Shown here: one piece after another, positions 1 through 41,622 of the stretch | Layout: each line of letters starts with the position of its first letter | Numbering within the stretch: the first letter of the stretch is position 1 | NCBI GenBank assembly: GCA_000146045.2 | Contig: BK006946.2 | Location: 768,001 to 832,000 of the forward strand | Origin: TPA_inf: Saccharomyces | Lineage: Eukaryota | DNA length: 64,000 bases | Direction: 5' to 3' | Made by a program: the position numbers and the translations under genes | Notes under the pieces: generated by a model | The model's input: the letters and a program-made list of their open reading frames with translations, nothing else | Told to the model about the DNA's origin: nothing | Database searches by the model: none

Positions 1-369
1 GTTATACTGTTGAAATGTATTGATTCCACCAAACGACATTAAGAACCAACTATTGCTTGAACTTTTTTTGATGGCTTAGCAGATTTGAACTATTAAGAAG
101 GACTTCTTCAGTATTGTATATATTGAAGAAAACCATCTGAAGTTGCAACATTTGAATTTTTCCTATGACGTTTTTTTTCCTCGCTTCATCAATATTTTTC
201 AGTTTTCCATGTTGGGGCATAATCTGGGTTAACTCGAATTGACAAGTATATAGTCAAGCTGGAGGTAAGAAGTACGTAACATTTAAAGAGCATTGTGACG
301 ATATTCTGTTCTTGATTAACTATAATTTTAAATATGAAGTTACACTAATTGCAAAGTAGCAAAAAATTT

Positions 370-441
370 GGACGAGTCCGGAATCGAACCGGAGACCTCT
401 CCCATGCTAAGGGAGCGCGCTACCGACTACGCCACACGCCC
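370..441 (-). tRNA. tA(AGC): tRNA-Ala, anticodon AGC
   Basis: The reverse complement reads GGGCGTGTGGCGTAGTCGGTAGCGCGCTCCCTTAGCATGGGAGAGGTCTCCGGTTCGATTCCGGACTCGTCC. It has a cloverleaf with a 7-nt anticodon loop TTAGCAT (anticodon AGC), a G3:U70 Ala identity pair and a GTTCGATTC T-loop. An oligo-T Pol III terminator lies immediately downstream on the minus strand (plus-strand 361-369 is aaaaaattt). Confidence 0.93.
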
Positions 442-547: not shown

Positions 548-879
548 TGTTGGAATAAAAATCAACTATCATCTACTAACTAGTATTTACGTTACTAGTA
601 TATTATCATATACGGTGTTAGAAGATGACGCAAATGATGAGAAATAGTCATCTAAATTAGTGGAAGCTGAAACGCAAGGATTGATAATGTAATAGGATCA
701 ATGAATATTAACATATAAAACGATGATAATAATATTTATAGAATTGTGTAGAATTGCAGATTCCCTTTTATGGATTCCTAAATCCTCGAGGAGAACTTCT
801 AGTATATCTACATACCTAATATTATAGCCTTAATCACAATGGAATCCCAACAATTACATCAAAATCCACATTCTCTACA
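548..879 (+). mobile_element. Solo Ty1/Ty2 delta LTR (~332 bp)
   Basis: It begins TGTTGGAATAAAAATCAACTATCATCTACTAACTAG and ends CCCAACAATTACATCAAAATCCACATTCTCTACA, with terminal inverted repeats TGTTGG...CCAACA. It is flanked by a perfect 5-bp target-site duplication tgtcg (543-547 and 880-884). It lies about 100 bp upstream of the 5' end of tRNA-Ala. Confidence 0.9.
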
Positions 880-39611: not shown

Positions 39612-40245
39612 TTAGTTCTTAATCTATATAAAAGAGCCTGTGATGGCCTTTTACCCTAGATTAGGAAGCGAAGGGGCCTTTCCCGAAAGGTTATGTATGA
39701 CTCCCTTGAAATGCATATGATAATTAAAACCAAAAAATGTTATGTGATTCTGAAAGGAAATGCTGTCATGTGAGTCAGGTGTAGAGCAGGTTAGAACAGT
39801 TTATATTACATAGTCTGAAAGGCACGTGAGAAAGTGCCATACCATTAGCCGAATACGTGAAATGTCTAAAAAAATACAAGTGAAAGAATAAAGTGCTAAA
39901 AAAACTATCAGGCTCTCAGAAGGCAATTTAGCCATATGTATACATATATATGTGTGTGTATAAACCTCATATAAGGGGCCCCAATGGTTTATCTAAAGGA
40001 TATCCTATTAGGACTTGTCTGTCACACGCAAAACTTCAAATGACATAATGATGAGCACTTGTCAAATAATTGAGTAACTTCTTCGATATCTCTGGTATGT
40101 AAAAATAAGTATATCGAGATGAGCGATTGTATCTGTATAGAGGTTGGTTTCTTTTTCTTACCTTTCTCTTTTTATTTTTTTCTCGCATTGGTTCAAAAAA
40201 AAAAAATGATGGTTTAAATTTCGTAAAATACGAAAAATGAAGGGA

Positions 40246-40317
40246 AGGTCCCACCCGGATTCGAACTGGGGTTGTTCGGATCAGAACCGAAAGTGATAAC
40301 CACTACACTATAGGACC
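40246..40317 (-). tRNA. tQ(CUG)M: tRNA-Gln, anticodon CUG (single-copy SUP70/CDC65 locus)
   Basis: The reverse complement is GGTCCTATAGTGTAGTGGTTATCACTTTCGGTTCTGATCCGAACAACCCCAGTTCGAATCCGGGTGGGACCT, with anticodon loop TTCTGAT (CUG). A T5 Pol III terminator lies immediately 3' on the minus strand. Confidence 0.93.
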
Positions 40318-40326
40318 TTTTTCTTC

Positions 40327-40536
40327 TGTTGTTAGTGTACACTAAAACTTCCGGTTTTATGGAACCTTTTTAAGAAAGATGGTCCCTATTTTAACAATAT
40401 CGCAAGCAATGGATCTTGTACTGGTACGGAAAACCGTATATACTAACAAATCTTAGGTTTCTACGTCTGACTAAAGAAAGAATTGTGAGTGAGGTTTATA
40501 GTAGAAGCTCTCCTCATGACTTTGGGCTATGTAAAT
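40327..40536 (-). repeat. LTR-like fragment (possibly sigma/Ty3-type, by position) abutting the tRNA-Gln 5' flank and interrupted by the tau insertion
   Basis: It starts with TGTTG about 10 bp from the tRNA 5' end, the Ty3-like position. The sequence is contiguous with 40912 onward once the tau element and its 5-bp TSD are removed. I cannot assign a family from memory. Confidence 0.35.
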
Positions 40537-40906
40537 TGTTGATAATTAGAGGTAAAAAATAGTATTAATGAAGAAATAATTACTGATCTTCTTATACTAA
40601 ATAAGAGAGGTATATAAAACACACGCCGATTGGTCATATTAATCATGACCAATATAATAGTGATTCCGGTAGTTACTATACATTTATGTGACGACTCATA
40701 TTCCTCATATATGTACCTACCATAACATGTTCAACTAATAGGTCTTTAACACAGCTTCAGTATTGTCTGAGCTTCTCGTTTAACATTCCTTCTGCAATAG
40801 GTGCAATCACACTTAAACGTATACGAGGTGTACATTAATATACGATGTAAGCATTAGATTGTTACCATAGCAACTCATGTCACTATTAATTACTCTCGTT
40901 CCAACA
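40537..40906 (-). mobile_element. Solo Ty4 tau LTR (~370 bp)
   Basis: The minus strand reads TGTTGGAACGAGAGTAATTAATAGTGACATGAGTTGCTATGG ... TACCTCTAATTATCAACA. It is flanked by a perfect 5-bp target-site duplication taaat (40532-40536 and 40907-40911). Confidence 0.85.
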
Positions 40907-40985
40907 TAAATGCAATTGATGATTTGCGCAACGCAGATACAGATTTTACTTTATTCTTCGTGCCTAAAATGGACCATCGTTTCAC

Positions 40986-41270
40986 TTACTAGCCGTTGTT
41001 TACTAAGATATAGTTGTATACGGTGTGGAGGATGATAAGATCATTGGACCAATATAACTATATAAATGTCGGCACCAGTTTAATGGAACCTCGAATGCAA
41101 TTACTGATAACGGAATGGATTAAGAAATGATTAGGTATGAGGTACTCTTATAGTATGTAGAATTTCTGATTTGCTTATGTGTTCATTTATTCTCGAGAAG
41201 AACCCTTAGTATATTCTGTGTCCTAATATTACAAAAAGTCAATGAGAGTCTAGGGACTATCAGATAACTT
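40986..41270 (+). repeat. Degenerate, truncated Ty1/2 delta LTR remnant
   Basis: Blocks resembling delta, including ATACGGTGTGGAGGATGATAAG, GGATTAAGAAATGATTAGGTATGAGG and TTCTCGAGAAGAACCCTTAGTATATTCTGTGTCCTAATATTACAAAAAG. It is 5'-truncated and heavily mutated. Confidence 0.5.
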
Positions 41271-41622
41271 CACTGTGCTCATCTTGATTCCTGTTCTAAC
41301 GACAGTAACACAGGATACGGTTAGTATTTTTTTGCCAACCTGATCTGTGAAAGAAAAATGTACCTGTCAATTCGGTTCTTTTTTGAGGCCGCTTTTTCGT
41401 ATAGTCGTCATCGATTGGATATTCGTTTAAGAAATAACGTGCTTGTTCATCGATTTCATCTATGATTCCATTCCATGTGTATGTATATATACGTAGTTAC
41501 ATATAATAATATAAATAAAGATTTGAAATAAATATGTCGCAGAAAAGAACTTTGCTCAAGATTTCATTGCTCGTAATGTTGTTTTTCCTAGGTTGACAAT
41601 TTTGGACGAGGCTGACCAATAA

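Follow-up and report, generated by a model that had tools for sequence, protein, structure and literature searches.

Introduction

[quoted passage not shown] The clusters of Ty1, Ty2 and Ty4 solo LTRs that result lie a few hundred bp 5' of tRNA genes (tDNAs) and carry 5-bp target-site duplications. Young LTRs are nested in old ones, and old, fixed copies occur together with young, polymorphic copies (PMC5911963). A second system relevant to the locus described here is Ty3, whose LTR (sigma) is found at Pol III start sites.

We analyzed a stretch of 64,000 nucleotides of S. cerevisiae DNA (64 kb, called the window below; all coordinates refer to it) that contains the gene for tRNA-Gln(CUG) and several LTRs upstream of it. 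The locus is an ordinary tDNA flank and is already annotated in S288c, with tQ(CUG)M/SUP70, YMRCtau3 and YMRWdelta20; it matches the Ty1, Ty2 and Ty4 clusters in each of the properties listed above. We found nothing unusual relative to such clusters in general; the host gene is single-copy and essential, and this leaves the pattern unchanged. Its likeness to sigma insertions at Pol III start sites is confined to the position of one TGTTG pentamer, with no sigma sequence. The elements on chromosome XIII of S288c in SGD and in Carr et al. 2012 are the same as ours, and the coordinates and sequence of the tau are identical. Our reading differs from theirs in two respects. The delta that they place at 41000-41233 appears to be longer (~40956-41281), and the interval between the tRNA gene and the tau, where they mark nothing, likely contains part of an inverted delta relic (~40446-40536, continuing at 40912-40952).

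Our overall reading, to which we assign a probability of about 0.85, is that tQ(CUG)M has the usual upstream solo LTRs, arranged as a proximal promoter block, an inverted delta, a nested tau and a plus-strand delta. The discovery value is small: the main features are annotated in the reference, and it is textbook knowledge that LTRs pile up upstream of yeast tDNAs.

Results

The tRNA-Gln(CUG) gene and its surroundings

ARAGORN detected a 72-nt tRNA-Gln with anticodon ctg at 40246-40317 on the minus strand. The Rfam model RF00005 was covered in full by this gene, with a score of 56 bits (gathering score, 29), and the window contains one copy of tRNA-Gln(CUG). An initial annotation, made from the sequence of the window, had named the gene tQ(CUG), the SUP70/CDC65 locus (tQ(CUG)M in the reference), and described it as the sole, essential copy. 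The anticodon and the Rfam score bear out the identification, and the published work bears out the rest: there is one tQ(CUG) gene, which is essential, and there are nine tQ(UUG) genes, over-expression of which can rescue deletion of tQ(CUG) (PMC5372720, PMC3664417). Because the gene is on the minus strand, LTRs at higher coordinates are 5' of it.

In size and in Pfam domains, nearby open reading frames correspond to URA10, SCS7, ZDS1, RCE1, BUL1 and RRN9, in an order that we take to be that of S. cerevisiae chromosome XIII. We compared the locus with its orthologs in S. paradoxus, S. mikatae, S. kudriavzevii, S. uvarum and S. eubayanus, and with S. cerevisiae contigs that were located by exact hits to variants of the SCS7 and RRN9 proteins. 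SCS7 was too conserved for species to be separated in 90% identity clusters, and the cluster members, RRN9 and ZDS1 were used instead. In all five other species the tRNA gene is between SCS7 and URA10/RRN9. At this syntenic position, S. paradoxus and S. mikatae have exactly the S. cerevisiae gene sequence, and the genes of S. kudriavzevii, S. uvarum and S. eubayanus each depart from it by 1 nt.

Pol III termination occurs at T runs. The minus strand past the 3' end of the gene reads ...GGGACCT TCCCTTCA TTTTT CG, with the TTTTT lying 8 nt after the 3' end (40233-40237, minus strand), and we presume that this T5 run is the terminator. Together, the syntenic conservation and the downstream T run argue for a functional gene rather than a pseudogene.

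A polymorphic Ty4 tau with a matching empty site

A young feature of the flank is a 370-bp Ty4 tau solo LTR at 40537-40906 on the minus strand. It has the ends TGTTG...CAACA and is flanked on both sides by a perfect TAAAT, at 40532-40536 on the side near the tRNA gene (-215 to -219) and at 40907-40911 on the far side. Window positions equal sacCer2 positions minus 767999, and the annotation of Carr et al. fits at this constant offset. These authors list YMRCtau3 as a Ty4 solo LTR on the minus strand of chromosome XIII, 808536-808905 (Carr, Bensasson & Bergman 2012, PMC3511429), and the reverse complement of 40537-40906 is base for base their entry 'chrXIII_s342/YMRCtau3'. It also aligns to the chromosome V Ty4 LTR chrV_s127, with 367 of 371 columns matching. 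The complete 370-bp tau with a TAAAT duplication that the initial annotation described is thus exactly YMRCtau3.

YMRCtau3 belongs to a recently active clade and was present in 13 of 25 scorable strains (Carr et al. 2012, PMC3511429). Among the S. cerevisiae contigs that we examined, the site was filled in six and cleanly empty in 13 others, in which it reads ...GGGCTATG TAAAT GCAATTG..., with a single TAAAT. The clean empty site in other strains shows that the insertion is polymorphic, and this strain comparison accounts for both copies of TAAAT as the duplication made by the tau.

An ancient plus-strand delta

A degenerate delta remnant on the far side of the tau had also been proposed from the sequence, and this proposal holds. 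A Ty2 LTR from the window (548-879), used as a single-sequence query in nhmmer, aligned through its positions 12-279 to 40966-41233 on the plus strand (E 5.5e-11). The element is the annotated YMRWdelta20, a Ty1-type solo LTR on the plus strand of chromosome XIII at 808999-809232 (window 41000-41233), an inactive element that is fixed (22 of 22 strains; Carr et al. 2012, PMC3511429). A delta profile HMM (described below) matched it with E 3e-21.

The S. paradoxus ortholog of YMRWdelta20 is nearly full length, covering profile positions 3-335, and its projection onto S. cerevisiae suggests that this Ty1/Ty2-type delta reaches beyond the annotated bounds, to ~40956-41281. The boundary where the 3' end of this delta meets unique sequence can be aligned in S. 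mikatae as well, from which the insertion appears to predate the split between S. cerevisiae and S. mikatae. We recognized neither TG...CA termini nor a 5-bp target-site duplication in the S. cerevisiae or S. paradoxus copy, the ends being too decayed, as is expected of an insertion older than that split.

The TGTTG pentamer lies in a conserved block next to the tRNA gene

The remaining part of the flank, between the tRNA gene and the tau, had been described in the initial annotation as an LTR-like fragment of unclassified origin (40327-40536), starting with TGTTG at a Ty3-like position. On the plus strand, TGTTG occupies 40327-40331 and is 9 nt from the 5' end of the tRNA gene. The same five positions on the tRNA-sense strand, which reads ...TTCCATAAAACCGGAAGTTTTAGTGTACACTAACAACAGAAGAAAAA with the tRNA directly after, are CAACA at -14 to -10.

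These positions are part of a conserved, tRNA-proximal block at -1 to -53 (40318-40370, minus strand). The alignment of this block, about 50 bp directly upstream of the gene, has no gap across the six Saccharomyces species, and the proximal 53 bp are 81% identical to S. mikatae in blastn. The block contains CAACA, a T-rich stretch at -30 to -25, and TTCCAT at approximately -47 to -42. CATCA takes the place of CAACA in four of the six species (S. paradoxus, S. kudriavzevii, S. uvarum and S. eubayanus).

In yeast tDNAs the favored start of transcription is an A located near -13, and this A belongs to TCAACA, a common motif of the non-template strand (Patterson et al. 2019, PMC6673722, summarizing earlier work). 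CAACA at -14 to -10 fits this motif, and TGTTG is therefore most simply read, by its match to the published consensus, as the complement of a putative Pol III initiation motif and not as the terminus of an LTR. It follows that finding TGTTG near a tDNA in yeast is no evidence of an LTR end. The pentamer is uninformative by itself in any case: there are 200 copies of it in the 64 kb of the window, an average of one per ~320 bp.

We weighed this reading against the possibility that 40327-40536, continued from 40912 onward, is what remains of a sigma LTR of Ty3 or Ty3p that had inserted beside the Pol III start site, where Ty3 canonically integrates. The position and direction of the pentamer, which points away from the gene, are those of such an insertion, and tQ(CUG)M ranks first among 267 measured tDNAs as a de novo target of Ty3 (PMC6673722). 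However, searches of the fragment with LTRs of Ty3 (sigma), Ty3p, Ty5 (omega) and Ty4 (tau) recovered nothing with blastn at word size 7 or nhmmer --max; the queries were single sequences from the supplements of Carr et al. and from the window, a library without some non-cerevisiae families, such as a formal Tsu4 consensus. Sigma and the Ty3p LTR gave only E > 0.5 in blastn, and nhmmer --max was empty at E up to 10 in a search space of 524 nt. For Ty5 omega the best matches (E 0.05-1.2) covered 28-47 nt and were scattered rather than colinear. The tau of the window and tau-like LTRs from four other species had no match to the fragment from S. cerevisiae or S. paradoxus. RepeatMasker with a library of Ty1-5 and Ty3p had likewise annotated nothing between the tRNA gene and the tau (Carr et al. 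2012, PMC3511429). Furthermore, a sigma inserted at TGTTG would have separated the part of the block at -15 to -53 from the gene, and the block is intact; the pentamer itself is TGATG in four species and, as noted, is frequent in the window. The empty searches and the unbroken 50 bp upstream effectively refute a Ty3 origin, which we regard as hardly credible.

A probable inverted delta relic disrupted by the tau

The LTR start at TGTTG thus had to be given up, and what remained to be explained was the sequence beyond the conserved block. When the tau and one TAAAT are removed, the 930 bp from the tRNA gene to the SCS7 stop codon are colinear with the S. paradoxus locus and align to it at 70% identity (E 1e-134); this indicates that everything in this interval except the tau is older than the split between these two species.

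In both species, the Ty2 LTR query had minus-strand matches at orthologous positions (E 0.16 in S. cerevisiae and 0.013 in S. paradoxus). These matches center on the conserved delta core ...GAGGAGAACTTCTAGTATA.... We then used the profile HMM, which was built from 18 diverse deltas (11 published inactive copies, the others from the window and from the loci of other species) and from which the fragment itself was left out. The S. paradoxus ortholog matched profile positions 182-281 on the minus strand with E 1.9e-5; the S. cerevisiae copy, with E 0.95, was barely detectable alone. The two matches have the same orientation and the same profile coordinates, and the nhmmer envelopes on the minus strand, in coordinates without the tau, are 129-260 in S. 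cerevisiae and 137-270 in S. paradoxus. The score of the S. paradoxus sequence was reached by none of 2000 dinucleotide shuffles, the best of which was 12 bits below it, and that of the S. cerevisiae sequence by 13 of 2000. The identification leans mainly on the S. paradoxus copy, and the two orthologs are not independent samples.

From these matches, we conclude that ~40446-40536 and 40912-40952 are probably the two parts of a decayed, inverted delta of Ty1/Ty2 type into which the tau was inserted. The part near the tRNA gene (minus strand, approximate bounds) would correspond to delta positions ~290 to 220. The distal part (~40912-40952, minus strand, placed by the nhmmer envelope and the S. 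paradoxus alignment) would correspond to ~220 to 182, and it borders directly on the start of YMRWdelta20, which has plus orientation. Only delta positions ~182-290 are covered, with no recognizable termini or target-site duplication. The interval from tQ(CUG)M to YMRCtau3, which is blank in the published Ty annotation, thus probably conceals a further, inverted delta relic that S. paradoxus has as well.

The 255 bp outside the tau and YMRWdelta20 could instead be unique intergenic DNA that resembles an inverted delta by chance. The weak S. cerevisiae matches (E 0.16 and 0.95) would fit such an explanation, as would the absence of visible termini and of a duplication, the lack of a RepeatMasker call, and a base composition that is AT-rich, as LTRs are. 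Chance is harder to reconcile with the S. paradoxus sequence, which reached its E value on a profile that did not include it and was approached within 12 bits by no shuffle. It would also have to account for an S. cerevisiae match that is orthologous, on the same strand, at the same coordinates and on the same GAGGAGAACTTCTAGTATA core, at a score seldom attained by shuffles. We therefore consider a chance match unlikely.

A different source for the distal fragment would be another LTR family, such as an old Ty4/Tsu4-like or extinct one, that shares a short motif with delta. Just ~100 bp of the profile are matched, and tau-like LTRs are common upstream of tRNA-Gln(CUG) in other species. Nonetheless, the window tau and the tau-like LTRs of S. 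mikatae, S. kudriavzevii and S. eubayanus matched neither the S. cerevisiae nor the S. paradoxus fragment, and the delta match is colinear across ~100 profile positions, which is more than a single motif. An origin outside the deltas is accordingly very improbable in our view.

S. mikatae has an inverted delta of its own, 94-176 bp upstream of the tRNA gene, which we considered as an ortholog of the relic. It is nearly identical to the delta consensus, as expected of a young, lineage-specific insertion, and we rejected it as the relic's counterpart.

Between the conserved block and the probable inverted delta is a spacer of ~75 bp (40371-40445) that can be aligned only between S. cerevisiae and S. 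paradoxus, with 62% identity in the colinear alignment. No LTR query matched it. It may consist of the eroded 3' end of the inverted delta together with unique sequence. Of the fragment that the initial annotation could not classify, then, the distal part is likely an inverted delta, and 40371-40445 stays unclassified. The same annotation had counted three retroelement families upstream of the gene; we count two, with Ty4 present once and the Ty1/Ty2-type delta twice.

Repeated insertions in the flank and the absence of sigma

Other strains and species have additional insertions in the same flank. Strain L006 (GCA_947370195.1) is without YMRCtau3 and has an independent tau of the same orientation, with 97.3% identity, which is located in the plus-strand delta at window positions 41153-41157 with GTATG duplicated. 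S. pastorianus (L013) has the tau in its S. cerevisiae subgenome, where it is split at approximately tau position 229 by a Ty1/Ty2 LTR, after which comes an open reading frame of 395 amino acids. The species S. mikatae, S. kudriavzevii, S. uvarum and S. eubayanus each possess tau-like and delta LTRs of their own in the 5' flank of the syntenic tRNA gene. These independent insertions indicate that the flank has been hit repeatedly, as expected at a Pol III gene, and the general idea in the initial annotation, that Ty elements build up in the 5' flanks of such genes, fits the anatomy of the locus.

The window has no sigma at tQ(CUG)M, and neither do 21 further S. cerevisiae contigs or the five other species. 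The property of tQ(CUG)M as a Ty3 target is conferred by the 25-75 bp upstream of the gene (PMC6673722). One could propose that purifying selection keeps Ty3 out of the promoter of this essential gene, the only one for a CAG-decoding tRNA. A rough estimate of the expected number of sigma copies at this gene is ~0.5, obtained from the 42 endogenous Ty3 LTRs of the reference and the share of insertions that this gene receives, ~1.1% on the assumption that the published counts are expressed per 10,000 hits. With ~0.5 expected, the probability of finding none is near 0.6, and the missing sigma needs no selection; we find selection of this kind quite improbable as an explanation.

A model for the accumulation of LTRs at tQ(CUG)M

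The anatomy of the locus, the TAAAT duplication with its empty site, the orthology between species and the repeated independent insertions are all shown by the comparisons above. For the processes behind them, we draw on established knowledge of Ty targeting and of the origin of solo LTRs by recombination, which we infer to apply at this locus. The integrases of Ty1, Ty2 and Ty4 would be steered to a zone upstream of genes transcribed by Pol III, so that insertions would come to lie in the 5' flank and the internal promoter would stay intact. Recombination between LTRs would later shrink the elements to solo LTRs, and newer elements would nest in older ones.

Read outward from the 5' end of the tRNA gene, the series begins with the conserved Pol III upstream block of ~50 bp and its likely start motif CAACA, followed by the ~75 bp that could not be classified and by the probable, heavily decayed, inverted Ty1/Ty2-type delta, which S. 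paradoxus has as well. A young, polymorphic tau entered this relic at -215 to -219 and duplicated TAAAT. The ancient, fixed, plus-orientated YMRWdelta20, which abuts the inverted relic, completes the series.

An apparent UUG anticodon in phased assemblies

In two of the first ten S. cerevisiae contigs that we inspected, the gene at this locus had the anticodon TTG together with two more substitutions of the tQ(UUG) type. The tRNA-Gln isoacceptors differ at four positions in total, one of which is an A/G difference at position 42 (PMC5372720, PMC3664417). All seven contigs from the assemblies GCA_030036295.2, GCA_030036475.2, GCA_030036335.2 and GCA_030036455.2 had the TTG allele, with three or all four of the paralogue states, on haplotypes with and without the tau alike. 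Judged by protein names such as CGH_1_HP and CPS_HP, these four assemblies are haplotype-phased. None of the 15 other contigs had the allele.

A natural CUG-to-UUG allele of SUP70, or a gene conversion, was considered and rejected. The allele tracks the assembly pipeline and not the strain or the haplotype: in the collapsed assemblies GCA_949125285.1 and GCA_949125785.1, which represent two of the same strains and have the same protein variants, the anticodon is CTG. In a search of the literature, we found no relevant account of natural anticodon variation or of gene conversion affecting tRNA genes in yeast. Because of the link to the pipeline, we treat the TTG allele as very probably an artefact, of consensus calling or polishing in the phased assemblies, that is driven by the nine tQ(UUG) paralogues. 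Taken at face value, the TTG at this locus in public phased assemblies could be mistaken for the natural loss of an essential tRNA.

Ty insertions upstream of tQ(CUG)M

The tQ(CUG)M/CDC65 gene (SUP70; window 40246-40317, minus strand) ranks first of 267 tDNAs as a de novo target of Ty3, a property conferred by its upstream 25-75 bp (PMC6673722). This flank (window 40318-40392) carries no sigma, the Ty3 LTR, in the window itself, and the same holds for 21 further S. cerevisiae contigs and five sister species.

We found a separate Ty4 insertion at this locus in one S. cerevisiae contig (L006; GCA_947370195.1). There, a tau solo LTR lies inside the degenerate delta YMRWdelta20 (~40956-41281), at the equivalent of window 41153-41157, flanked by a GTATG target-site duplication. 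It is 97.3% identical to YMRCtau3, the tau at 40537-40906 in the window, and has the same orientation. The site occupied by YMRCtau3 (40532-40536) is empty in L006.

YMRCtau3 is present in a S. pastorianus contig (L013; GCA_011022315.1, CP048994.1, 7870-9705), where a Ty1/Ty2 LTR (TGTTGGAATAAAAATC...), with a 395-aa ORF after it, interrupts the tau at approximately position 229. The arrangement suggests that a full-length Ty has inserted into the tau. The insertion displaces tRNA-Gln(CUG) past the end of the fetched locus.

Just past the 3' end of YMRWdelta20, at window 41284-41305, is the sequence TTGATTCCTGTTCTAACG, which is conserved in S. paradoxus. Compared by eye with the reverse complement of the delta 5' terminus, this very short stretch is alike at approximately 15 of 19 positions. 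TTGATTCCTGTTCTAACG may represent the opposite terminus of the inverted delta relic (~40446-40536 and 40912-40952), separated from it by insertion of the plus-strand delta.

Anticodon at SUP70 in other assemblies

Seven S. cerevisiae contigs (L002, L010, L018, L028, L030, L032 and L033) have a tRNA gene resembling tQ(UUG), the other tRNA-Gln isoacceptor, at the position of tQ(CUG)M, with the substitutions C34T, A42G and A51G and, in some of the contigs, G66A as well. All seven come from four public assemblies that are apparently haplotype-phased (GCA_030036295.2, GCA_030036475.2, GCA_030036335.2 and GCA_030036455.2). Taken at face value, these contigs would indicate loss of an essential tRNA in the corresponding strains. 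This interpretation is disfavoured because the CTG anticodon is present in 15 other contigs, including those from collapsed assemblies of two of the same strains. The tQ(UUG)-like sequence is very probably an artefact of assembly or polishing.

Neighbouring intervals

The distance from tRNA-Gln(CUG) to URA10 is approximately 0.7 kb in S. cerevisiae, compared to approximately 3.7 kb in S. uvarum (L015, 298-4083) and S. eubayanus (L016, 1089-4885); a 154-aa ORF is called within the extra sequence of S. eubayanus. In S. mikatae IFO 1815 (L011, 7155-10318), the SCS7-RRN9 interval is approximately 3.1 kb and, at the level of the record's annotation, does not include URA10.

The window contains a second tDNA, tRNA-Ala(AGC) (369-441, minus strand), with its own upstream pair of LTRs. 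One is YMRWdelta19 (548-879), an intact Ty2 LTR that is polymorphic, being carried by 3 of 22 strains. It directly adjoins the other, a degenerate Ty1 LTR (880-1212) that is fixed.
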